Part shown: piece after piece, positions 7,941 to 19,510 of the stretch | How the letters are laid out: every line of letters starts with the position of its first letter | How positions within the stretch are numbered: position 1 is the stretch's first letter | Origin: a bacterium | GTDB taxonomy: Bacteria; Electryoneota; JAOADG01 | Length of the DNA: 64,000 bases | Reading direction: 5' to 3' | Assembly: GCA_963681965.1 (NCBI GenBank) | Contig: OY820579.1 | Coordinates: forward strand, 1,408,001-1,472,000 | Translations under genes and position numbers: made by a program | Notes under the pieces: generated by a model | What the model was told of the DNA's origin: nothing | The model's input: the letters and a program-made list of their open reading frames with translations, nothing else | Databases searched by the model: none

Positions 7941-8594
7941 ATGAGAGTGGAGTTAATTTCCTTCATTACCGATTGGATCCTGCATCTTGACGTTCACTTA
8001 GCACAGGTGATACAGCAATACGGTAGCTGGACTTACGGAATCTTATTTTGTGTGATCTTCTGCGAAACTGGTTTGGTCGTGATGCCATTTCTACCCGGCG
8101 ATTCGTTGCTTTTCGTCGCTGGTGCCCTAACTGCGAAGAATCCCGATGTATTGAATATCGGTTTTCTGTTTGGGTTACTTTATTTTGCAGCGGTTGCAGG
8201 CGACAACACCAATTACGCCATCGGTCGATTCCTCGGGTTGAAACTGTTTACCAAACCCGATAGCAAATTCTTCCGGAAGGATTATCTTGATCGCACGCAC
8301 TCCTTTTACGAGAAATATGGCAAGAAAACCATCATTCTTGCTCGATTCGTACCGATCGTACGGACCTTTGCGCCCTTCGTCGCCGGTCTTGGGCGAATGA
8401 GCTATCTTACTTTTCTCACGTTCGATTTGCTCGGCGGGGCGCTCTGGATTGGCTCGCTAACTTTTGCGGGTTACTTTTTCGGTAATATCGAATTCATCCA
8501 GAAAAACCTGACCGTCGTTATTTTTTCCATTATCTTTCTTTCGATTCTTCCTGCGATCATTGAAGTTGTTCGCGAAAAATGGAGTAAGAAATGA
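7941..8594 (+). CDS. dedA: DedA family membrane protein
   Basis: FCETGLVVMPFLPGDSLLF, ARFVPIVRTFAPFVAG; start uncertain. Confidence 0.9.
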   Translation: MRVELISFITDWILHLDVHLAQVIQQYGSWTYGILFCVIFCETGLVVMPFLPGDSLLFVAGALTAKNPDVLNIGFLFGLLYFAAVAGDNTNYAIGRFLGLKLFTKPDSKFFRKDYLDRTHSFYEKYGKKTIILARFVPIVRTFAPFVAGLGRMSYLTFLTFDLLGGALWIGSLTFAGYFFGNIEFIQKNLTVVIFSIIFLSILPAIIEVVREKWSKK

Positions 8595-10645
8595 ACCGGA
8601 TATACATCTCACTTCTGTTATTGTTGACATGTAGTTTTCTGGCGATTGCCGCTACGCCGAATCCCCCCGCAGTATCGCATAAGATTGCGTTTACGCTGAA
8701 TCCGACGACTCAAATGCTAACGGGAATCGATACTATTTCCATTCACCACGGCAACCATAAATTCTATCTTGCGAAGAAATGCGATGCCAGCATTGTCGAT
8801 ATCACCGACAAAAAAAACGAGCCGCTGAAACTGGTGACGGCGAATCTGTTGGCGAAAACCGATGCCGAAGAGTGGGAAGCGAATGCGAATGCAATCGAAA
8901 TCAGTGGACCGAAAACAGTAGTTGCGAATTGGAGTGGCGTTTTCAACGATTCTTCCGCCAACGTGCAATTTTCACGCGAACAAGTCGCCGGTGTTCCTGA
9001 AGGGGTTATTGCCAAACAAGGAATTTTTCTATCGACCTCGGCGCTGTTTTATCCGATCGAATTCAATACTGTCCATGAATATACAGTGACGATTTCGACT
9101 CCGAGCGGTTGGACACCCATCACGACCGGGTTACGAACTAAAATCGGTCTTGCTCCGGAAGGTTTTGTCAATTGGTCGTTTGGTGGACCGTGGCAGAACG
9201 AAGGTTTGAGTATTGCTGCCGGTGAGTTTATTGTTCGATCTACCGACACACTCGGCATCTCCATCGAAACCTGTTTCTCGCCTGCACGCGATTCGCTTGC
9301 ACCAACCTACTTAGCTGCGGCGAAAAAGTATATTGCACGTTACTCACGCGAATTTGGAGCTTACCCTTGGCCATCATTTGCCATGGTCGAAGCATTTTTT
9401 CCCGCTGGTTATGGACTTCCGGGATACACTTTCCTCGGATCGGAAGTCATAGCATTGCCGTTTATCGTCACAACTTCGCTCGGTCATGAAGTTTTGCACA
9501 ATTGGTGGGGGAACGGCGTGTTCGTTTCCAGTAGCGGAAATTGGTGTGAGGGTCTGACGACATTTGGCGCCGATTGGGCGTACAAAACCGATCGTGGCGA
9601 GGATGCCGAGTATCGTCGTGGTTTGATCAAAGATTATGCCAGTTATGTCAACAATGGCAACGATTTTCCACTTCGCAAATTTACCTCGCGTTCCAGTGGC
9701 GCTACCCGCGCAGTCGGATACAACAAGTGCGCATTTCTGTTCTATGCATTAAAAAATCGAATCGGTGACGATGCCTTCAATCGCGCGCTACAGCGATTCT
9801 ACGCACAGTACCGGTATCGGTTCGCCGGATGGGACGAATTACGCGAGTGTTTCCAACAGGAAGCGCCGCATGAATCGTTGAAGTATTTCTTCCGTGATTG
9901 GATCGACGAGACTGGTGCGGTTGAGTTGAAGAATTTATCGATGAAGAATGTCGGCAAAACGACCGAGATTTCACTCGCTGTTTCCGGAAAACCATTCCCG
10001 ACATGGATTCCCGCCAAATTAAGCAATGGCGATAGTTCCCGGATCGTCCAGATCGACGGAAGAACCATTCGCAACGGGAAATTGACTTGGAGTAGTGCGA
10101 TCGAATCGACCATTCACAATTGGCAACCGAATGAAGTGACCATCGATCCCTATTATCAAGTCTGGCGTAAACCGGCTCCGGGCGAGATCCCCCCGTCACT
10201 ATCTGATCTGTACGGTGCGAAAAAAGTCGGTTGTTGGATCGAGGGAAATGGCGATTGGCAACTCGATTCTGCGTTGAGAAAATTAGCCGTGTCGCTGTTC
10301 GATACCACCGTCGTCTGGCTGAAAACAACCGAAGAATTTCCCGAGATCCCGATTGTCACACTTCGGAAAGATATATCGAAAACAGCACTCTATCTGCACG
10401 AACCGACACCCGAGCAGAAATTGCTGTTCGGCAAACCGCTCTTTGAAGTGAAAAACGAAGGGAAGCGAATCGTCGGTTTGATCTCTGTTGACAATCTTGC
10501 CGGTGTATCCTACTTGCAGCGCAAGGCACCCCATTACGGGAAATATTCCCGAATCGTCTTTGATGAGACTGGTAAGAACATTATCAAAGATCTGGCTCAA
10601 CCCGGGAAACACGCGCTTCACTACGTATTGCCGCAAGCTAAATAG
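8591..10645 (+). CDS. secreted M1-family metallo-aminopeptidase
   Basis: Signal peptide, HEVLHNWWGN...NWCEGL zinc motif, VGYNK catalytic Tyr. Confidence 0.85.
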   Translation: MNRIYISLLLLLTCSFLAIAATPNPPAVSHKIAFTLNPTTQMLTGIDTISIHHGNHKFYLAKKCDASIVDITDKKNEPLKLVTANLLAKTDAEEWEANANAIEISGPKTVVANWSGVFNDSSANVQFSREQVAGVPEGVIAKQGIFLSTSALFYPIEFNTVHEYTVTISTPSGWTPITTGLRTKIGLAPEGFVNWSFGGPWQNEGLSIAAGEFIVRSTDTLGISIETCFSPARDSLAPTYLAAAKKYIARYSREFGAYPWPSFAMVEAFFPAGYGLPGYTFLGSEVIALPFIVTTSLGHEVLHNWWGNGVFVSSSGNWCEGLTTFGADWAYKTDRGEDAEYRRGLIKDYASYVNNGNDFPLRKFTSRSSGATRAVGYNKCAFLFYALKNRIGDDAFNRALQRFYAQYRYRFAGWDELRECFQQEAPHESLKYFFRDWIDETGAVELKNLSMKNVGKTTEISLAVSGKPFPTWIPAKLSNGDSSRIVQIDGRTIRNGKLTWSSAIESTIHNWQPNEVTIDPYYQVWRKPAPGEIPPSLSDLYGAKKVGCWIEGNGDWQLDSALRKLAVSLFDTTVVWLKTTEEFPEIPIVTLRKDISKTALYLHEPTPEQKLLFGKPLFEVKNEGKRIVGLISVDNLAGVSYLQRKAPHYGKYSRIVFDETGKNIIKDLAQPGKHALHYVLPQAK

Positions 10646-10670: not shown

Positions 10671-10699
10671 GGGGTGGTCGCAACCACCCCTTTTTTTTT
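10671..10699 (+). terminator. intrinsic terminator
   Basis: GGGGTGGT-CGCA-ACCACCCC followed by T9. Confidence 0.9.
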
Positions 10700-10838
10700 G
10701 TTTCGAATTGACAATCGTGAAAAATCTTGCAAATTTTCAATTTTCTATTGCACAATCAAAATTAACCCATTATTCTATAGATAGCTTACATGGCACTGCC
10801 GGCATGATTGTTGGTGAAACAAAATCAAATGGGGCAGG

Positions 10839-11084
10839 ATGATGGAAACGCAAATTGAATTTCAGCCGGCACTTCAAGTAGTCGATCTGAATATCTTGAA
10901 AGATGCAGCTCAGCATTTACTGCAACTCGGGTACCCTTCGCAGATTAAACCTTGGGAAGAAGTTACCCCTTCCGAATTGGAAGAATGGATGAATCCTGCG
11001 CAAGGGGGATACCTCCTTTCGCTTCCCGCAGATAATTTTTTCCAAGCGATGAATGAACTGGGTAAAATCTATAAAGCCACCTGA
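10839..11084 (+). CDS. hypothetical small acidic protein
   Basis: 81-aa ORF with purine-rich upstream sequence; no recognisable family. Confidence 0.5.
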   Translation: MMETQIEFQPALQVVDLNILKDAAQHLLQLGYPSQIKPWEEVTPSELEEWMNPAQGGYLLSLPADNFFQAMNELGKIYKAT

Positions 11085-11254: not shown

Positions 11255-11896
11255 ATGACTGTCGCACCATTGAAGCGATACCGAATTCCCCACTTCCCAA
11301 CCTATGATTTTTTGCTCGAACATCCCATACTACTGGAGAAGCTACCAGACCGCTGGTGCAACAATAAGCTAGTGATGCTCGCGCTCGGAACACTGTCTTT
11401 TATGATGGGAAGCTGCAAGCCGGATGAACCAAAATGGGAAGGTGGAATTGTTGTACCAATTTTGACTGAAAATGAAGCACAACAGATTATCCGGGAAGAA
11501 GCGTCAACTGCTGGGATCACTTTCATCACCGACTCGCTCACAATACCTAATGTGAGAATTCCCATAAGCTTTATCAGATACTCTCATCCATCGGATTCAG
11601 TTCATCTCACTCCCGAAACCAACTTAACGCTCGACGGTCACGACACATTACGTCAGATCAGCTACGAATTCATATCGGAAACAGATTTATCCCAGTGGAG
11701 AATTCAATCGGATACGTTATACGAAATTTATAATATTAACCGCTCGAAAACTGCTAGGGAGCTTCAGACTGAACTCCGGACGCAGCGACCGGATCTGCAT
11801 GTGGGGGTATTTTCTGAGCAAAATGGCAACCCACAAGATCTCCGCCAACAGGTACGGGATTTCATCTCGTGGCTGCATCAACAAGGAGTTTACTAG
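11255..11896 (+). CDS. radical SAM-associated putative lipoprotein, paralog 1
   Basis: Shared 34-aa leader, h-region, MGSC (Cys54), conserved domain ending LRQQVRDFISWLHQQGVY. Confidence 0.85.
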   Translation: MTVAPLKRYRIPHFPTYDFLLEHPILLEKLPDRWCNNKLVMLALGTLSFMMGSCKPDEPKWEGGIVVPILTENEAQQIIREEASTAGITFITDSLTIPNVRIPISFIRYSHPSDSVHLTPETNLTLDGHDTLRQISYEFISETDLSQWRIQSDTLYEIYNINRSKTARELQTELRTQRPDLHVGVFSEQNGNPQDLRQQVRDFISWLHQQGVY

Positions 11897-11897
11897 C

Positions 11898-12533
11898 ATG
11901 TTGGTTGAACCACTTCGAAGATACGATACTCCGAAGTATCCAAACTTCGAGGGCACCGTGCAGCATCCGGAAATACTGCAAACAATTCCACACCGGTGGC
12001 GTCACAATAGCTGGGTATTTTTTTCTCTGAGCACGGTTGTTTGGTTCTGCACCGGTTGTCCTTGGGGAGGTGGATTTGCTACACACGGCATACCGCCCTC
12101 TGAAGCTGAGATGTTAGCAATTATCAACAGCGAAGCTCGAACAGCCGGAATTGTATTCAAGGGCGATACGCTAACGTTACCGAATGTGTCGTTACCTCTG
12201 CACTTTTCCACTCCTCATCACACCGATACTCTTTGTCCATCGTCGCCTATCGGTTTGAACATGGATGGATTCGATTCCACACATTCAATCGCCTATGAAT
12301 TCGTCGCATGGGAAGATCTCGACGCGTGGAACCGACTCGTATCGATTGAAGCATATCAATCCCTAATGATGAGGCAAACGGCAGAAGCGCTTCAAACGCA
12401 ATTGCGCGCGGATCATCCCGAATTGAAAATCGGTGTATTCCATGAGCCGAATTATCAGGGATCCGATACTCTTAATATCCGACAGCAAGTACAATCATTT
12501 ATCGCTTGGATCCGGTCACAGGGAGTGATGTAA
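11898..12533 (+). CDS. radical SAM-associated putative lipoprotein, paralog 2
   Basis: Start reassigned to ATG 11898 (SD AAGGAG, alignment with paralogs); CTGC (Cys54). Confidence 0.85.
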   Translation: MLVEPLRRYDTPKYPNFEGTVQHPEILQTIPHRWRHNSWVFFSLSTVVWFCTGCPWGGGFATHGIPPSEAEMLAIINSEARTAGIVFKGDTLTLPNVSLPLHFSTPHHTDTLCPSSPIGLNMDGFDSTHSIAYEFVAWEDLDAWNRLVSIEAYQSLMMRQTAEALQTQLRADHPELKIGVFHEPNYQGSDTLNIRQQVQSFIAWIRSQGVM

Positions 12534-12535
12534 CG

Positions 12536-13174
12536 ATGTTGATCCAACCGGTACGAAACTACCAAATTCCGAAATATCCCGTCTTCGCGGAAGTGCAATA
12601 CTATCCCGATTTAATGGAGACGATGCCCGCTTGCTGGGGGCATAGTAAATTCGCAATGTCTTCTTTCAGTGCCATAGCGATGTTGGTGTTGAGTGGCTGT
12701 CCCATTTTTTCCCGGACTGCCGGACCACCTTCGATACCACCAGTGATGACCGAATCCGAAGCTGCGCAAATTATCCTGCAAGTTGCCGATTCCGCCGGTG
12801 TTCATTTTAACGGCAGTCAGTTGACGTTGAACAATATTAGCATTCCTTTGCATTTCTATAGCGACACGACCACAACCGATACCCTCCATCATACCGCGAT
12901 CACCAATCTGGTGTTTGATGGTAACGATACAACGCATCACGTAGCATACGAATATATTTCATCGGAAGACTTGTCGATCTGGCGCAATCTGGATACTAGC
13001 AGGATATACCGATCAATCGATGGTGTGAAAACTGCCAGAGATCTTCAAAGTGAACTGAGAGTTCTTCGACCGGATTTACACATTGGTGCGTTTTATCCCT
13101 CCAATTACGAAGACGAATTGCGCCAACAAGTACGGGATTTCATCGCATGGTTGCGAACCGAAGGGGTGATTTGA
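12536..13174 (+). CDS. radical SAM-associated putative lipoprotein, paralog 3
   Basis: Start ATG 12536 (SD GGGAG); canonical lipobox LSGC (Cys55). Confidence 0.85.
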   Translation: MLIQPVRNYQIPKYPVFAEVQYYPDLMETMPACWGHSKFAMSSFSAIAMLVLSGCPIFSRTAGPPSIPPVMTESEAAQIILQVADSAGVHFNGSQLTLNNISIPLHFYSDTTTTDTLHHTAITNLVFDGNDTTHHVAYEYISSEDLSIWRNLDTSRIYRSIDGVKTARDLQSELRVLRPDLHIGAFYPSNYEDELRQQVRDFIAWLRTEGVI

Positions 13175-13176
13175 CA

Positions 13177-13938
13177 ATGCTAATCGAACCGATCAAACGC
13201 TATCCCAAACCCAATTACCCCATCTTCCAGTTTGTGCAGGAACACCCCGAATTGCTCGAGAAATTGCCGAAGCAGTGGTTCAACAATCCCGTGCTGCTAA
13301 GTGCTGCATGTGCTGCCGGAATGCTGATCGGTTGCGATCACGGAACCACCAGTCCCTCGACGATGAGATCCAGTAGTGTTGCTCCGGTCTATGCCCATGG
13401 TGAGGGAAGAGCGATTTGGGGCGGAGTCATTTTCGGTGCGGCGTATAGTTTTTTTACCGAAGCCGAAGCGCGGCGATTAATATTGGATGAATTTACGGCT
13501 GCGGGGTATTCGATTACCGATACGACAAAAGCCATCGAAAATGTGAAAATTCCGGCAACGAGCTATTTCGAAACGTTGGATAGCGTCGTTACGTATTTTC
13601 CGACCACAGTATCGCGATTGCAGCTTGATGGTTACGATTCGACTTTGTCGATTGGTTACGAATTTGTTTCCGATGACGATTTCTATAATTGGCGGAGATC
13701 GGATTCGGTGCTCAGCACAGTCTATGTCGAAAATTTGAAAACGACTGCAGAACGTCTGCGACAGGGATTAATGAAGAAACAGACCAATACACATCTTGGT
13801 GTTTTCTACGATCCACTAACATATTACCTGGGGTATGACGCTGCCGATTCGGTAGTAGCAGCGCAAAAGAATAAAACCGAACTGCAACGCCAAGTTCGAG
13901 ATTTCATCGGGTGGCTGCGGTCACAAGGAGCTTTATAA
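13177..13938 (+). CDS. radical SAM-associated putative lipoprotein, paralog 4
   Basis: Start ATG 13177; LIGC (Cys53); VAPVYAHGEGRAIWGG segment. Confidence 0.85.
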   Translation: MLIEPIKRYPKPNYPIFQFVQEHPELLEKLPKQWFNNPVLLSAACAAGMLIGCDHGTTSPSTMRSSSVAPVYAHGEGRAIWGGVIFGAAYSFFTEAEARRLILDEFTAAGYSITDTTKAIENVKIPATSYFETLDSVVTYFPTTVSRLQLDGYDSTLSIGYEFVSDDDFYNWRRSDSVLSTVYVENLKTTAERLRQGLMKKQTNTHLGVFYDPLTYYLGYDAADSVVAAQKNKTELQRQVRDFIGWLRSQGAL

Positions 13939-13940
13939 TC

Positions 13941-14735
13941 ATGCTAATCGAACCGGTTAAACGTTATGAAACTCCGCAATACCCGGCGTTCGAATATGTG
14001 CAAGAACACCCGGAAATCCTAAAGAAATTACCGAAGCGATGGCACGACCACAAACACGCAATCGCTGCAGTATCGATATTTGCATTAATAGTGGGAATCA
14101 GCCAAAGTAAAAATGTATTCAGCCTAAATGATAACATGACAGATAGTTTAAGATCCAGTTATCGAGATGGAAAATTGTCTTGGGGAGGAGAAGGTTCTAT
14201 GCAGCCTCAATCAAAATTTTTTACTGAAGCGGAAGCGAAATGTATTATCGATGACGAAGCAGCAAAATCGGGAATACAATTTAACTTGGGTACACGCGTT
14301 TTATCGAATGTGGAAGTACCAAAAACTTCGACCTATCTAAACTATCCTTCACAACGACAACTGGGAAATAGGATACGAAATCTTGAACTTGATGGCTTCG
14401 ATTCTGTCAAGAAAATAGGATTTGAATTTATTTCGTTAGACGATTTCAATGCATGGAAAGATTCGAGTAATATTAATGGAAGCACTCGCGGCGAAATCAA
14501 TCTGAAACAAACCGCGCAAGAATTACGAAATGGGTTAGAAAAAAAATCGTTACACATGCATATCGGCGTTTTCTACGATCCGATAGGGTCGGAATATTCT
14601 AAGTACACTCATTTCGCCGATCCTTCAATGAATACTGATAAAATGAACCGGAAATTAAGTCAAGAGACGGAACAAGCACTACGAATCCAAGTCCAAGAAT
14701 TTGTTAAGTGGATGAAAGAGCAAGGAGCGCAATAA
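13941..14735 (+). CDS. radical SAM-associated exported/membrane-anchored protein, paralog 5 (no lipobox Cys)
   Basis: Start ATG 13941; same leader and C-terminal domain; hydrophobic stretch without a following Cys. Confidence 0.85.
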   Translation: MLIEPVKRYETPQYPAFEYVQEHPEILKKLPKRWHDHKHAIAAVSIFALIVGISQSKNVFSLNDNMTDSLRSSYRDGKLSWGGEGSMQPQSKFFTEAEAKCIIDDEAAKSGIQFNLGTRVLSNVEVPKTSTYLNYPSQRQLGNRIRNLELDGFDSVKKIGFEFISLDDFNAWKDSSNINGSTRGEINLKQTAQELRNGLEKKSLHMHIGVFYDPIGSEYSKYTHFADPSMNTDKMNRKLSQETEQALRIQVQEFVKWMKEQGAQ

Positions 14736-14738
14736 CCG

Positions 14739-15878
14739 ATGCACCTGACGCTCCACCTGACCGGTCAATGCAATTTTCGCTGCAGCTACTGTTATGCCGA
14801 GAAGAATCCAGTCGATATGAGCTTTGAAACGGCGCAGAAAGCCATTCAGATGTCGCTGCGGATGCTCGAAGAAAAGCAGAGTGATAGTAGTCTGGGCATA
14901 GTTTTCTTCGGTGGCGAACCACTTTTGCGCAAACCGTTGATCCGCGAGATCATGACCTATTGCAAGCGCATCGAGACCGAAACGAAACGCCCCTTCCATT
15001 TCAAAATGACCACCAACGGCATGTTGCTCGACGAAGCATTTCTCACCGATCCGCTCACCTCACAAATCATGATTGCATTGAGTCACGACGGTATCCCGGC
15101 AGCACACGATGCTCACCGCCACGATGTCGGTGGACATCCCACTTCGCAAAAATTGGATCCGGTAATCGATCTACTGCTGAAACATCAACCCTATGCGCTG
15201 GTGATGCAAGTGGTTTCACCGGACACCGTGCCGTATTATGCACAATCGGTTCGCTACCACTATGCGTGCGGTTTCCGGTACCTAATCTATACGCTTGATT
15301 TCAAAGCGGATTGGAATGATAAGTCGTTTAAAGACCTTGCAAAGCAGTATAAGGAGTTGGCAGAGTGGTATGAGACCATGACATTGAAGGAAAAGAAATT
15401 TTATTTCAGCCCGTTCGATAAAAAAATCGCCAGCCATATTTTTCCGGAAGAGTGTAACGGCGAACGTTGCGACTTCGGAAAACGACAAGTCTCGGTCGCT
15501 GCAACCGGAAGGATCTTTCCCTGCATTCAATTTGTCGGCGATGGGAGCGACTCGCGGTTCTGTATCGGCGATGTCGAAACCGGTATCGATCAGAAGCGAA
15601 GCGCTAAACTCTACTTCGAGAATTTCGCCGAGAAAGCATCGTGCTTCGATTGCGCCATCAAAGAGCGCTGCAATCAGTACTGCGGCTGTATCAATCTTCA
15701 TACTACCGGCAAGATCAATACCGTCTCACCATACCTTTGCGCACATGAACGAATCGTCCTGCCGATTGCCGATCGGTTAGCGGAGAAGCTCTATAAAAAA
15801 CGGAGTGCGATGTTTATTCAGAAACAGTACAATCATCTTTACCCGCTACTGTCGCTGGTCGAGGATCGGACACGATAG
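14739..15878 (+). CDS. radical SAM/SPASM protein, putative peptide/protein maturase
   Basis: CNFRCSYC, FFGGEPLL, TTNG, SPASM C-X12-G-X4-C and C-X2-C-X5-C-X3-C(GC)...C. Confidence 0.92.
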   Translation: MHLTLHLTGQCNFRCSYCYAEKNPVDMSFETAQKAIQMSLRMLEEKQSDSSLGIVFFGGEPLLRKPLIREIMTYCKRIETETKRPFHFKMTTNGMLLDEAFLTDPLTSQIMIALSHDGIPAAHDAHRHDVGGHPTSQKLDPVIDLLLKHQPYALVMQVVSPDTVPYYAQSVRYHYACGFRYLIYTLDFKADWNDKSFKDLAKQYKELAEWYETMTLKEKKFYFSPFDKKIASHIFPEECNGERCDFGKRQVSVAATGRIFPCIQFVGDGSDSRFCIGDVETGIDQKRSAKLYFENFAEKASCFDCAIKERCNQYCGCINLHTTGKINTVSPYLCAHERIVLPIADRLAEKLYKKRSAMFIQKQYNHLYPLLSLVEDRTR

Positions 15879-16399: not shown

Positions 16400-19300
16400 T
16401 TATTCAAATTTGCCGTCTTCGGAATTTTCCATATCGTGGACGATTTTCATCGTCTCGACACTGACGGTACAGACACGCTGCAATAGATCGATTACTTTAT
16501 CTTTGTAATCGGCAAAGCGATAGGTATTGAATAACTCTGCTATGGTTGGGTCGGATGGTTTCTTCTCTTTGTATTGATCGAGAATCCATTCGAGCGCACT
16601 GCGATTGCCAAGTTTGTATTCCCACGCCTCGGCCGGGATTCCGGTGAGCGAAGTCATTTCGTCCAATTCGATCGTACCGTGCTCTTTATCGGCCTTGAGT
16701 TTCACTTTGAGTTTGGGGACATAATCCGTCAACGTTCCCGGCTCGGTAACGGCGGGAAAAGATGTGGTCTGCTTGGGTCGCGAGGGTTGCCGGGGAGCTT
16801 CGACGAGTTGCAACCCGAACGGTGCGGCCGCTTCGAAGCCAATGTGCAGTTCCATCAATTGTTTGCCCCACTGCGACCACAACGAAAAGTCTTTGTAGAA
16901 AGGAATCCGGGGAAAGTCGCATTTCAGATTCTGAGCGTACTTTTTACGATACGCCGGGTTGTGCAACACTGCATAACAGTAGTGGAAAATCTGCTCGCGG
17001 CTGATCGTCTTATCTTTGTAATGCTTCTGGAATTCTTTCAAGCCCCAGTCGGTGAGGTTGTCTATAGGGTTTCCCGCTTCGTCAAATCGGAACAATGGAA
17101 TATTCTGACACCCACCTGGAAGACAATTCAAATCGACATAATATTTACTAGATAAACTTAAGAATTGATTTGCATGAGCAGAACCAGAAATACAAATAAT
17201 TTTGTTTTCAGAAGTCGTATGTCTAATTTTTGACCACTTAAACGTTCTTCCTGTTAAGTATTTATCACAATAAAACATTAAATAAGTAAAAGGTCGATAG
17301 ATACAACCACTAACTTGAGAATGGTTAAATGATATATGGAGTCGTTTCTGACGACATTTGTCAAGCTTTACGTTAAATTTAATTTTTGAGTCAGAAATGT
17401 TAGACATGTTCATCGAAATTTCATATTGTTCAATAAAGTATTTTACTTTGTTTTTTAGTAATTCTGAACTATAGTCATACATCCAATGATCACTTTTCGT
17501 CTCAATTCCTAATGAAAAAGTTTTGAACAGTGCGCATTGCCCTTTTTGTGATTTAACTAACTTGTCAATTAATGGTATTAAATGTTCCCAATCATTGTTC
17601 ACAAGATCAATCCAATGATGGTTCTTATCTGGAGTGATCGCTTGAAAATTGATTTGATGCAATGGATTTGATTTTAAAAATTCAAATTTTTCTTTTCTAG
17701 TTGCTCGTATGTTGCAAGGAAGTGCATAAAAGATGTTACATTTGTCATTTACTTTACATTTTTGTTTTATTAAAAATGCAATAGAAATACCGACTGCTGC
17801 TGATACACCAAAAATTGTATGTTTCTCATTCAAGAAGATACCGTCTAAACCAGATAAATCGTGAATGTTCCCACCTAAGTCGATAAAGTAAGCAGAATCA
17901 AATTCTGTTTGGATGCATTTGCGGAAGCCATTAAAGGCACAACCATGCAAAAATTTATTATTTGTTATGAAACAAATTATTCCACCATCATTAATCCTAT
18001 CTGAAGCCCACCGAAAAAATCTTACGTAAGGGTCATATAACATATATTGTGTTTGTGCAGTCCCATTTTTTACGTAAGTATCTTTTATTCGCTTGTCAAT
18101 TTCAAAATATCTTTTGTTGCTATTTTGATAATTATAGTTTGGTTGTTTCGCGTTATACGGTGGATTCCCAATCACGACCGAGATTTTCTTGTTGTTTTGT
18201 TCGCAAATTCGCTTGGCATTCTCGCTGCTGATTCCAAACAACGTACCCTGTTTCCCTTCGTACCCAAGCGCGGCAGTATTGTCCAGCGTATCGACAAAGC
18301 AGAGATTCGGAAACTCTTCGAAGGCACCCATTTTCTGCTTGTAAGAGTATTCGATATTCAAATTGGCGATGTAATACGGGAGGATGGCAACCTCGTTCGC
18401 CAGCAATTCGTTCTTGTATTTATCGAGCAGATACTGCTTGGGAATGTGCTCGATAATCTCGCAAATGAATGTCCCGGTTCCAGTAGCAGGATCGAGAATT
18501 TCGACATTCTTCGAGGCGAGTGTTTTCCCGAAATGCTTGTGCAGCAGATAATCGGTACTCTCGACCATGAACTTTACAATTTCATTGGGTGTATAGACCA
18601 CGCCCAAGCGGTCGGCCGCTTTCGGGTTGTACACTTTATAGAAATTCTCGTAGAGAACTTTGAGAAATTTCTGTTTTTCGTGGTGGTCGGGAATACCGGA
18701 GGCCGCTTCGTGAATGGTGCCGTAAAAATGCTCGATATTGCCCAGCAGTGTTTTCCGTTCCGGGTAAGTAAACAACTTTTCGATCAGCTCTTCCAACTTG
18801 CGCGCGATATTGTTGTGACGGTGGAAGTCCGGTTCGTCAAAGACTCTATTGAATATATCGGCAGTTAGGATATGCTGAATCATCATCTCGCGGATATCGT
18901 CGGCAGTAATGGCGGGATTGATTTCGGTCTTGCATAAATCGTGGAATTCTTCGAATGCGTCCAAATACGGCTGATTATTTTTGCTCTTGATGTCGATTTG
19001 CACGCGGATGGCCACCAGAATCTTGGGAATATCGGTTTTGAAGATCTCCAGTGCCGCTTCGAATTTTCGTATGATTTCGCGTTTGAATTCGATAAAGGAG
19101 ACAATCAAGCGGTCGAGTTGTGCCGGTTCATGAACATTCGCCCGCCCGACCAATTGACCGTTCTGAAACAGTACGGCACTTTGGCTGTCTTCGAATAAAA
19201 TGTTGGTGAGTGGGTATCCCTTTTTTATTTTTATATCGATCTCTTCGTCTAAACTGTCTTTTTCGTCTTTACTTTCCCAATACCCGATATCCAAACCCCA

Positions 19301-19510
19301 GCTATTTCGCAAAATGCCGTCGGGTTTGACGTTTTTTCCGGTCGTTCCAAGTACAAATACTTCCCGCACTACTCGTAAATTGCGGTCGTCGGCGTAACGA
19401 TTCAATAAATTACAAAAACATCCTTTGATAGTATCTTCATTGGCTGTTTTCGCAAACTTAACAGTTTGATCGTATTCGTTGTAGTATTCTTGGATATAAA
19501 GCTGCGACAT
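16400..19510 (-). CDS. single-polypeptide restriction-modification enzyme (type IIG / type ISP-like C-terminus), N6-adenine methyltransferase
   Basis: N-terminal KPDG...YWESKD nuclease-like motif, GVVYTP, LDPATGTGTF, VIGNPPY, C-terminal WEYKLGNRSALEW. Confidence 0.88.
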   Translation of the reverse strand: MSQLYIQEYYNEYDQTVKFAKTANEDTIKGCFCNLLNRYADDRNLRVVREVFVLGTTGKNVKPDGILRNSWGLDIGYWESKDEKDSLDEEIDIKIKKGYPLTNILFEDSQSAVLFQNGQLVGRANVHEPAQLDRLIVSFIEFKREIIRKFEAALEIFKTDIPKILVAIRVQIDIKSKNNQPYLDAFEEFHDLCKTEINPAITADDIREMMIQHILTADIFNRVFDEPDFHRHNNIARKLEELIEKLFTYPERKTLLGNIEHFYGTIHEAASGIPDHHEKQKFLKVLYENFYKVYNPKAADRLGVVYTPNEIVKFMVESTDYLLHKHFGKTLASKNVEILDPATGTGTFICEIIEHIPKQYLLDKYKNELLANEVAILPYYIANLNIEYSYKQKMGAFEEFPNLCFVDTLDNTAALGYEGKQGTLFGISSENAKRICEQNNKKISVVIGNPPYNAKQPNYNYQNSNKRYFEIDKRIKDTYVKNGTAQTQYMLYDPYVRFFRWASDRINDGGIICFITNNKFLHGCAFNGFRKCIQTEFDSAYFIDLGGNIHDLSGLDGIFLNEKHTIFGVSAAVGISIAFLIKQKCKVNDKCNIFYALPCNIRATRKEKFEFLKSNPLHQINFQAITPDKNHHWIDLVNNDWEHLIPLIDKLVKSQKGQCALFKTFSLGIETKSDHWMYDYSSELLKNKVKYFIEQYEISMNMSNISDSKIKFNVKLDKCRQKRLHISFNHSQVSGCIYRPFTYLMFYCDKYLTGRTFKWSKIRHTTSENKIICISGSAHANQFLSLSSKYYVDLNCLPGGCQNIPLFRFDEAGNPIDNLTDWGLKEFQKHYKDKTISREQIFHYCYAVLHNPAYRKKYAQNLKCDFPRIPFYKDFSLWSQWGKQLMELHIGFEAAAPFGLQLVEAPRQPSRPKQTTSFPAVTEPGTLTDYVPKLKVKLKADKEHGTIELDEMTSLTGIPAEAWEYKLGNRSALEWILDQYKEKKPSDPTIAELFNTYRFADYKDKVIDLLQRVCTVSVETMKIVHDMENSEDGKFE

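Follow-up and report, generated by a model that had tools for sequence, protein, structure and literature searches.

What does a single radical S-adenosylmethionine (SAM) enzyme do at the end of a row of five putative exported proteins that all begin with the same long segment ahead of their signal peptide? The question is raised by a gene array at positions 11,255 to 15,878 of the window, the 64,000-nucleotide (nt) stretch of contig OY820579.1 that was analysed here and that comes from a bacterium of the lineage Electryoneota. A sequence-only reading of the window had described five tandem paralogs, 1-3 bp apart and followed by a radical SAM/SPASM gene, and had taken the segment ahead of the signal peptide for a leader on which the enzyme docks; the arrangement of the genes is borne out by the listing of open reading frames (ORFs). 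Our analysis makes it fairly probable, at roughly 60%, that the locus is a self-contained two-component maturation cassette composed of tandem leader-bearing precursors and one SPASM enzyme devoid of a RiPP recognition element (RRE; RiPP, a peptide made on the ribosome and modified after translation). The pairing of this leader-lipoprotein family with its radical SAM enzyme is real and general, being large, widespread and so far unnamed, and the open-access literature searched contained no account of it.

The five paralogs are 33-41% identical to each other in pairwise alignment and are assembled from the same parts in the same order, namely a leader, a hydrophobic segment, a lipobox-type Cys, a variable linker and a conserved C-terminal domain of ~150 amino acids (aa). 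Residues 1-34 align without gaps, with M1, P5, Y9, P12, P15, P24, P31 and W34 invariant, and the lipobox Cys follows at residue 54, 54, 55 and 53 in paralogs 1-4, so that the alignment agrees with the earlier description of a gap-free pre-signal segment, of a Cys at 53-55 in four of the five copies and of a variable linker leading into a conserved domain. Paralog 5 has no lipobox Cys; signal peptidase I may process it, or its hydrophobic segment may remain in place as an anchor. The mature forms of paralogs 1, 3 and 4 contain no Cys and those of paralogs 2 and 5 one each, and no sulfatase motif was found in any of the five. A Tat signal was rejected, given that the twin-arginine motif is absent and the conserved motif reads P-x-R-W. 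We also rejected the possibility that the leader results from a miscalled start codon: a GGAG-like Shine-Dalgarno sequence lies 7-12 nt upstream of all six ATGs, the intergenic gaps along the six genes measure 1, 2, 2, 2 and 3 bp, and the N-terminus is conserved in 120 of 150 relatives.

Between the copies, the DNA encoding the leader is only 52-74% identical and its synonymous sites are near saturation (proportion of differing synonymous sites, pS, 0.57-0.96 vs a nonsynonymous pN of 0.19-0.44). The leader is therefore under purifying selection and maintained at the protein level, not by recent gene conversion. A loose regular expression for the leader, applied to start codons in all six frames of the 4.24-Mb genome, matched these five genes only, and a profile of the five paralogs detected no sixth copy anywhere in the same genome.

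Given that a word-based homolog search with paralog 3 returned nothing but paralog 3 itself, the family is visible only by profile search. When 1.84 billion cluster representatives were searched with a profile built from eight sequences, 1840 proteins matched at E <= 0.001, 1239 at E <= 1e-10 and 226 at E <= 1e-30, almost all of them aligned from the first residue. The view that the family is uncharacterised was thereby strengthened: no Pfam or NCBIfam model matched the paralogs or the eight canonical relatives, except for a Cu_amine_oxidN1 insert in long forms, and the sources annotate the members as 'hypothetical protein' and in one case as 'metalloprotease'. In the long relatives P0141, P0157 and P0258 (380-410 aa), this insert is located within the C-terminal domain (E 2.9e-13 to 2.4e-08). 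The ESM Atlas returned unnamed clusters and one automatically named 'Metalloprotease', with no common Pfam family among them, which are probably the lipoprotein family itself, and no meaningful match was obtained when the PDB sequences were searched with a profile (best E 0.98).

Conservation was calculated from the best 150 representatives of the family. Their consensus leader reads MkvkPVKrY..P.YPTr.iLdeHPELLRlvPkRWrgN, with the core P5-x-[KR]-x-Y9-x-x-P12-x-[YF]14-P15, and is followed by a hydrophobic stretch with a gC lipobox and by the variable linker. P31 and W34 are conserved in 99% of the representatives, P15 in 98%, R33 in 97% and P12 in 96%, and PxRW stands at an identical distance from the start in 120 of them. 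With a mean of 2.39 bits per position, the leader is more conserved than the mature domain (1.84) or the linker (0.93); the hydrophobic segment reaches 1.99 bits and the VAPIF...FGC motif 2.63 bits. A lipobox-type Cys lies 10-23 residues past W34, mostly at 19-20, in ~88 of the 150, an approximate count obtained with a simple regular expression that misplaced a few sequences; the remaining representatives have signal-peptidase-I-like or anchor-like ends. Behind the linker the consensus continues with srVAPiF.HGdGRGsFGCvaVnPPVFLSEdEA, followed by the domain elements L.LDGtD, FEFVS..D and GVFYDP and the C-terminal LR.QVRDFIkWLKAQGVI. The picture of the paralogs drawn earlier is thus right for the local form, but this form is a derived one: most relatives carry VAPIFxHGxGRGxFGC, which is degenerate in the window and has lost its Cys in all five copies. 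Paralog 4 retains most of the family motif (VAPVYAHGEGRAIWGG), with Gly replacing the family Cys.

The assignment of the downstream gene product to the radical SAM/SPASM enzymes was confirmed by the cluster motif CNFRCSYC (CX3CX2C) at residues 11-18, by scores of 46.8 bits for Radical_SAM (PF04055; cut-off 29.5) and 32.8 bits for Fer4_12 (PF13353; cut-off 22), and by a C-terminal set of Cys residues (C239, C244, C262, C302, C305, C311, C315, C317 and C334) that is invariant in 120 homologs. The SPASM model PF13186 gave no score on the window enzyme and is precomputed on some homologs; the window enzyme aligns across the SPASM region of CteB. This protein is the closest solved structure (5wgg, E 1.8e-25), and the alignment extends from CteB residue 99 to residue 338 of the window enzyme. 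Because it starts only at CteB residue 99, the enzyme has no N-terminal RRE; the matches to QhpD and to the SCIFF maturase begin at profile positions 96 and 99, with the N-terminal domain absent. Approximately 40 C-terminal residues extend past the known SPASM fold, and within this tail D345, L351, F359, Y364, P369, S372 and E375 are invariant across the 120 homologs of the clade. As the protein starts directly with the radical SAM motif and lacks a signal peptide, it is predicted to be cytoplasmic.

A word-based search with the enzyme matched more than 1100 proteins, the best 120 of which are 53-61% identical to it, named 'radical SAM protein' or 'uncharacterized', and derived from Armatimonadota, Acidobacteriota and others. 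Every score against a named NCBIfam model was far under the cut-off. The top model, the PapB family NF047865, reached 209 bits (cut-off 340) and covers residues 3-328, followed by a nif11-type model (129 bits), QhpD TIGR03906 (125 vs 453), the SCIFF maturase TIGR03974 (122 vs 425) and the anaerobic sulfatase maturase anSME TIGR03942 (75.3 vs 349). On account of these low scores, membership of the enzyme in the PapB, QhpD, SCIFF or anSME families was rejected.

How strictly enzyme and leader family go together was assessed in a scan of one genome per species, which gave 117 confirmed stretches; the best 80 loci were analysed with in-house hidden Markov models, using thresholds of >= 400 bits for the enzyme clade and >= 80 bits for the lipoprotein family. 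The expected co-occurrence was found, with the enzyme adjoining the family in 71 of the 80 loci, usually directly downstream. Among the nine loci devoid of the enzyme, three stop at a contig edge and six are orphan loci in five genomes, all of which hold the enzyme clade elsewhere (E <= 1e-149). In the phylum of the window, four of 79 genomes contain the lipoprotein family and the same four contain the enzyme clade; the family was also present in four of 200 Clostridia genomes, again together with the clade (E <= 1e-125) and adjacent to it each time, with one genome of the Clostridia samples, G190, left unscored. According to their sequence records, the loci span Armatimonadota, Acidobacteriota, Bacillota/Clostridia (including Hungatella hathewayi, Pseudobacteroides cellulosolvens and Ca. 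Formimonas warabiya), Planctomycetota, Verrucomicrobiota, Lentisphaerota, Hydrogenedentota, Myxococcota, Nitrospirales and Bacteroidota. This scattered distribution, together with an enzyme identity of ~60% across phyla, points to a horizontal spread of the two-gene cassette.

A single paralog is present in 51 of the 80 loci, two in 16, three in nine and four to seven in four loci, and locus L019 has nine when counted at E <= 1e-5. Clustering of all neighbouring ORFs in these loci revealed no third conserved gene and no protease, transporter or RRE protein. The analogy with lasso peptides, by which the YxxP of the leader would be read by an RRE, consequently fails as a mechanism, since the enzyme itself has no RRE and no third gene is conserved. 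The layout varies in some loci. At L088:5153-7622, which is among the orphan loci, two family members are followed by only a 36-bit fragment of the enzyme, and the intact copy lies ~70 kb away in the same genome (G079), so that L088 looks like a decayed second cassette. Unlike the tight arrays elsewhere, L086:4360-10869 has three family members that are split from one another and from the enzyme gene by small unrelated ORFs (76-158 aa). In L007:1495-3214 (-) and L008:1381-3186 (-), from two distant genomes of the window's phylum, the enzyme gene comes first, the leader is cut to its K-x-Y-x-x-P-K-Y-P core and the VAPIF...FGC motif is entirely absent.

Co-folding of leader and enzyme, which the sequence-only reading had proposed as a check, gave a docked complex. 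For this model, leader residues 1-40 of paralog 3, backed by an alignment of 150, were combined with the enzyme, backed by an alignment of 120, and with SAM and three 4Fe-4S clusters, and ipSAE values of 0.85, 0.83 and 0.86 were obtained vs 0.00 for the best of three controls. In the calibration, 58 of 80 solved complexes and 2 of 110 mismatched pairs attained the mark; these counts apply only roughly here given the use of own alignments and riding ligands. The partner had a predicted local distance difference test (pLDDT) score of 63-71, and at least 80% of the contacts were common to the runs. They involve leader residues 1-9, 12-17, 20 and 26-31 and enzyme residues 192-194, 218, 233-236, 301-307, 329-338 and 345-365, which places the modelled site on the SPASM region and the clade-specific C-terminal helices. 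The model thus supports binding of the leader to the enzyme. Together with the conservation of the leader and its strict co-occurrence with the enzyme, this controlled model supports the idea of a maturase-docking leader, while the part of the proposal that relied on YxxP recognition of the RRE type did not hold.

Further support for a shared leader comes from a sister clade of the enzyme in Clostridia. An enzyme of ~355 aa that is more remote from the clade profile (E 1e-90 and 1e-88) is encoded in two genomes; it ends ~15-20 residues sooner than the main-clade enzyme, scores 186-190 bits on NF047865 (cut-off 340) and was detected in 86 of 301 genomes of one Clostridia order (E <= 1e-60). No NCBIfam model exists for this enzyme or its precursors. 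Beside it, the two genomes encode two to three short lipoproteins (74-122 aa) starting with MKI[TD]P.K.YKKPLYA, in which P5, K7, Y9, P12 and Y14 are in register with the window leader and are followed by a hydrophobic stretch and a lipobox. One to four such short lipoproteins precede the sister enzyme at L098:2002-4102 (+), L099:3050-4859 (-) and L100-L129; they begin with MKITPAKDYKKPLYA, followed by the lipobox and by acidic V-x-L-x-G repeats. As the sister precursors share both the leader core and the signal for signal peptidase II (SPII), leader plus signal is the element common to both clades. A link between the second half of the leader (HPELL..PxRW) and the last ~20 residues of the enzyme was considered and set aside; the sister clade has neither, but in the genomes G005 and G036 the enzyme tail is retained even though the leader is shortened.

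Of 31 sister loci, 27 yielded a total of 42 unique precursors, and three of the four without any are short pieces at contig ends; a lipobox was present in all 42. Their mature part, in which E, T, D, G and V are abundant, has a mean length of 66 aa and is free of Cys after the lipobox in 21 of the 42. A profile built on all 219 Gly residues of these precursors, with no prior selection, showed V at position -4 (33%, enriched 3.8-fold), L (37%, 8.2-fold) or Y (13%, 5.5-fold) at -2, A/D/G at -1, E/D/G at +1, V at +2 and V/I at +4, which corresponds to repeats of the type V-E-L-D-G-D-V. A regular expression for this repeat, designed post hoc on data already seen, gave 95 matches, compared with 5.4 on average and at most 11 when the sequences were shuffled 200 times. 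By their sequence, the short precursors look like true RiPP-style substrates.

Which residues of the window proteins might be modified is less apparent. For the wider family, the natural candidate is the HGxGRGxFGC part of the VAPIF...FGC motif, whose Cys column is occupied by Cys in 99 of 136 family members of the loci, and in multi-copy arrays the copy beside the enzyme gene usually has this Cys. In the window copies, the position reads WGG, WEGG or similar, and these Cys-less copies keep a fully conserved leader. Besides the window, the sister species G001, the genomes G005 and G036 and the loci L070 and L075 have an intact enzyme with no linked Cys-bearing copy. Given that three of the five mature window proteins are free of any Cys, a Cys-based thioether is unlikely there, and so is, at least in the window, a reaction dependent on the Cys of HGxGRGxFGC. 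The lipobox Cys was set aside as a thioether donor, being needed for lipidation and having no conserved acidic residues downstream. The L-x-L-D-G-x-D hairpin, which is invariant in the family, occurs in each of the five window paralogs as well as in the minimal forms of G005 and G036, and it resembles the V-x-L-x-G repeat of the sister precursors. Under the Gly profile of the latter, the Gly of this motif scored highest in 52 of 150 proteins vs ~10 expected and first or second in 90 of 146 (mean 15.6 Gly sites per mature region), a ranking that is no independent test since the sequences are related. The hairpin is the leading, though weak, candidate for the modification site, and the Cys-free substrates suggest a chemistry unlike that of the enzyme's nearest named relatives.

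We hypothesize that the leader of the nascent or pre-export protein would dock on the SPASM domain and the C-terminal helices of the enzyme, which would then modify the still unfolded preprotein in the cytoplasm. Sec export would be followed by the action of Lgt and by cleavage before the lipobox Cys by SPII, and this cut would remove leader and signal peptide together, leaving a lipid-anchored modified protein; a single enzyme would serve all five paralogs. We infer the timing of the modification before export, and the removal of the leader by SPII, from the lipobox and from the signal-peptide-less enzyme. Several points weigh against this interpretation. That the enzyme acts on the window preproteins at all, including the whole of catalysis, we infer from sequence, and the complex score is the model's own confidence. 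Given that the modelled leader lies on the outer SPASM surface, the model is silent on which part of the substrate enters the active site. VAPIFxHGxGRGxFGC, better conserved in the wider family than any other stretch, is degenerate in the window and Cys-less in all five copies, which may therefore be poor substrates or no substrates, and the LxLDGxD motif may be kept for the fold alone. The long N-terminal extension could serve export or timing and not recognition. Lipidation, as judged from the lipobox, is not universal either, in view of paralog 5 and ~40% of the relatives.

In a rather unlikely alternative, the family reaction would be a PapB/QhpD-like thioether between the Cys of HGxGRGxFGC and an acidic residue further downstream, for instance the invariant Glu of 'FLSE-EA', and the window paralogs would no longer be modified and would keep their leader for other reasons (competition, regulation or holdase-like binding). 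The nearest named models (PapB, QhpD and SCIFF, with the scores given above) form thioethers and CteB is the best structural match; the motif Cys is present in most family members of the loci and usual in the enzyme-adjacent copy of arrays, and no region of the family is better conserved than the VAPIF...FGC motif. PapB crosslinks Cys with a downstream Asp or Glu at flexible spacing, according to PMC9413430. However, all named models remain far under their cut-offs, the enzyme persists intact in the six cases without a linked Cys-bearing copy, the leader of the Cys-less copies is fully conserved and under purifying selection, and half of the sister precursors (21 of 42) are free of Cys past the lipobox.

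The position of the modelled leader on the outer SPASM surface, away from the active site, would also be compatible with an N-terminal segment that is the cytoplasmic tail of a membrane-anchored partner, tethering or regulating an enzyme that acts on another molecule. No modification site was identifiable in the window copies, and paralog 5 and the ~40% of relatives without a lipobox could remain as anchors with the N-terminus inside. We regard this explanation as improbable, because the SPII- or signal-peptidase-I-type signals of most members, if cleaved, would part the tail from the domain; moreover, one enzyme is accompanied by up to seven paralogs at >= 80 bits (nine at the looser threshold in L019), the sister clade couples the same leader to short repeat peptides typical of RiPP cores, and no alternative substrate gene is conserved nearby in the 80 loci. 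Enterococcal pheromones are peptides cut from lipoprotein signal peptides, and on this model the product could be the leader itself, with the enzyme modifying an N-terminal Tyr or Pro and SPII setting free, as the active molecule, a leader-signal peptide so modified. Besides the signal peptide, only the leader core is common to the main and sister families, and two aromatic residues are among its invariants. Nevertheless, we consider this very improbable, as the mature domain and the sister repeats are also strongly conserved, the modelled contacts fall on the C-terminal helices and around the last SPASM cysteines (301-307, 329-338) and not on the SAM site, and the 80 loci show no linked protease or exporter that could handle such a peptide.

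We thus return to the maturation cassette and compare it with known systems. The anSME enzymes are RRE-less SPASM radical SAM enzymes that modify an exported protein in the cytoplasm before export, and they read a (C/S)xPxR site itself, with no pre-signal leader. The window enzyme is RRE-less as well and would likewise act before export, but its TIGR03942 score is far too low and the window paralogs have no sulfatase motif. The PapB and CteB maturases provide the best named model and the best solved structure, respectively; in contrast to them, the window enzyme scores below the cut-off, lacks an RRE and has an extra C-terminal extension, and its putative substrates are without CX3D-type motifs. 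The pair TIGR04133/TIGR04134, to which a possible analogy had been drawn, also couples a radical SAM enzyme with a putative lipoprotein. It is not the system found here: the enzyme scores 36.8 bits against TIGR04133 (cut-off 425), and TIGR04134 (cut-off 39.8) has no match genome-wide at E <= 10.

Judged by analogy, the systems closest in operation to that of the window would be SPASM protein maturases guided by a leader, such as QhpD/QhpC and CrpC/CrpA. According to PMC13692751, these belong to the same broad SPASM clade and use a protein substrate with an N-terminal leader, and CrpA and CrpB have one leader in common. Both systems use an RRE and form Cys thioethers in Cys-rich targets, whereas the window enzyme has no RRE and the mature window proteins contain no or one Cys; neither system has a lipoprotein signal behind the leader. 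With regard to export, the closest parallel is given by the DAG-RiPPs or RiPP-lipoprotein hybrids (DybH/DybA, lipidated bufferins and oxazolins; PMC13056109, PNAS March 2026; PMC12452194), which combine MNIO enzymes with the lipoprotein pathway. In these hybrids, a cytoplasmic modifying enzyme without a signal peptide is encoded beside precursors with an SPII signal, just as four of the five window paralogs have a lipobox, and the lipoprotein pathway handles proteolysis, lipidation and localisation in a short cluster without a dedicated protease or exporter. The differences are that their enzyme is an MNIO and ours a radical SAM/SPASM protein, that theirs are recognised by a C-terminal motif and the window system would be by a conserved leader ahead of the signal peptide, and that the window products are folded domains of ~150 aa. 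For the lipoprotein route, the authors of PMC13056109 anticipate pathways of the leader-independent or follower type, and the main text of their paper has no mention of radical SAM. By this analogy, the window system is most readily interpreted as a DAG-RiPP variant that is leader-dependent and uses a radical SAM enzyme, with the leader ahead of the signal peptide.

A more far-reaching proposal, which we offer only tentatively and consider doubtful, is that main and sister clades form one unnamed radical SAM 'lipo-RiPP'/lipoprotein superfamily. It would be defined by a leader in the n-region of the Sec/SPII signal that an RRE-less SPASM enzyme reads with its C-terminal extension, by a Cys-independent modification and by SPII as the leader peptidase, with lipid-anchored modified proteins and peptides as the products, and it would comprise at least 1840 clusters at 50% identity in addition to the sister clade in 86 of 301 genomes of one Clostridia order. 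The modification would possibly occur on the hydrophobic-x-L-x-G motif, with epimerisation or side-chain cross-linking as candidates.

The mature domain itself was modelled with AlphaFold2 for paralog 3 (pLDDT 88.6) and for a canonical relative (86.7), resulting in a compact alpha/beta domain in both cases. The top fold matches of both models are restriction-endonuclease-like, with weak Z scores of 5.0-6.5, where Z < 8 may reflect a common arrangement only. They include I-Bth0305I (3r3p; Z 6.5, root-mean-square deviation 3.7, 92 aligned residues), Bax1 (6p4w; Z 5.8) and VRR-NUC (4qbn; Z 5.2-5.7), with Vsr and NGO0050 (1cw0, 3hrl) as further weak matches and a best Foldseek E-value of 0.022. 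A check for PD-(D/E)xK against this weak match found conserved E, D and E residues and no conserved Lys at the ExK position. An endonuclease-like mature domain is thus a lead provided by modelling.

The coordinates of the cassette are compiled in Table 1. The terminator-like hairpin at the end of the upstream gene is the 5' limit of the cassette's transcription unit; apart from it, the promoter and terminator scans of the locus gave results at chance level.

Table 1. Features of the cassette, numbered by position in the 64,000-nt window; the paralogs are trimmed to the conserved Met.
Feature	Position (nt)	Strand	Details	Basis
Terminator-like hairpin and T-run	10671-10700	+	end of upstream gene	
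Paralog 1 (213 aa)	11255-11896	+		ORF listing and alignment
Paralog 1, leader (aa 1-34)	11255-11356	+		
Paralog 1, lipobox MGSC, Cys54	11414-11416	+	followed by a short linker	
Paralog 1, C-terminal domain			L-T-L-D-G-H-D, D127-G128	
Paralog 2 (211 aa)	11898-12533	+	leader 11898-11999; lipobox CTGC, Cys54 at 12057-12059	
Paralog 3 (212 aa)	12536-13174	+	leader 12536-12637; classic lipobox LSGC, Cys55 at 12698-12700	
Paralog 4 (253 aa)	13177-13938	+	leader 13177-13278; lipobox LIGC, Cys53 at 13333-13335	
Paralog 5 (264 aa)	13941-14735	+	leader 13941-14042; hydrophobic segment without lipobox Cys	
Radical SAM/SPASM enzyme (379 aa)	14739-15878	+	CX3CX2C (aa 11-18) at 14769-14792	
Enzyme, clade-specific C-terminal extension (aa ~339-379)	15753-15875	+		

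Between the terminator and paralog 1 lies an acidic ORF of 81 aa (10839-11084, +) with no Pfam or NCBIfam match and no counterpart upstream of the single-copy locus L006 in the sister species. Upstream, positions 8591-10645 (+) encode a protein of 684 aa with a hydrophobic, signal-peptide-like start and an HExxH motif, which scores 24.5 bits for Peptidase_M1, just below the cut-off of 27.7. Convergent with the cassette, positions 16400-19510 (-) encode a Type ISP-like restriction-modification methylase/specificity protein of 1036 aa (Type_ISP_C 272.9 bits, with ISP_coupler, Eco57I and N6_Mtase domains). The adjacency of either large gene to the cassette is not conserved in other genomes.

If the proposed maturation cassette is correct, the RiPP-lipoprotein hybrids, which were recognised only in 2026, would gain a radical SAM branch. 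This would mean that the lipoprotein route is open to a leader-dependent pathway whose leader is located upstream of the signal peptide, where one housekeeping protease removes both, and that SPASM enzymes have a new, RRE-free way of substrate recognition. A function would be given to very many 'hypothetical' exported proteins of Armatimonadota, Acidobacteriota, Planctomycetota, Verrucomicrobiota, Clostridia and others, and would extend to the short acidic lipopeptides of one Clostridia order. The cassette would thus represent a compact two-gene system for the production of modified, membrane-anchored proteins.

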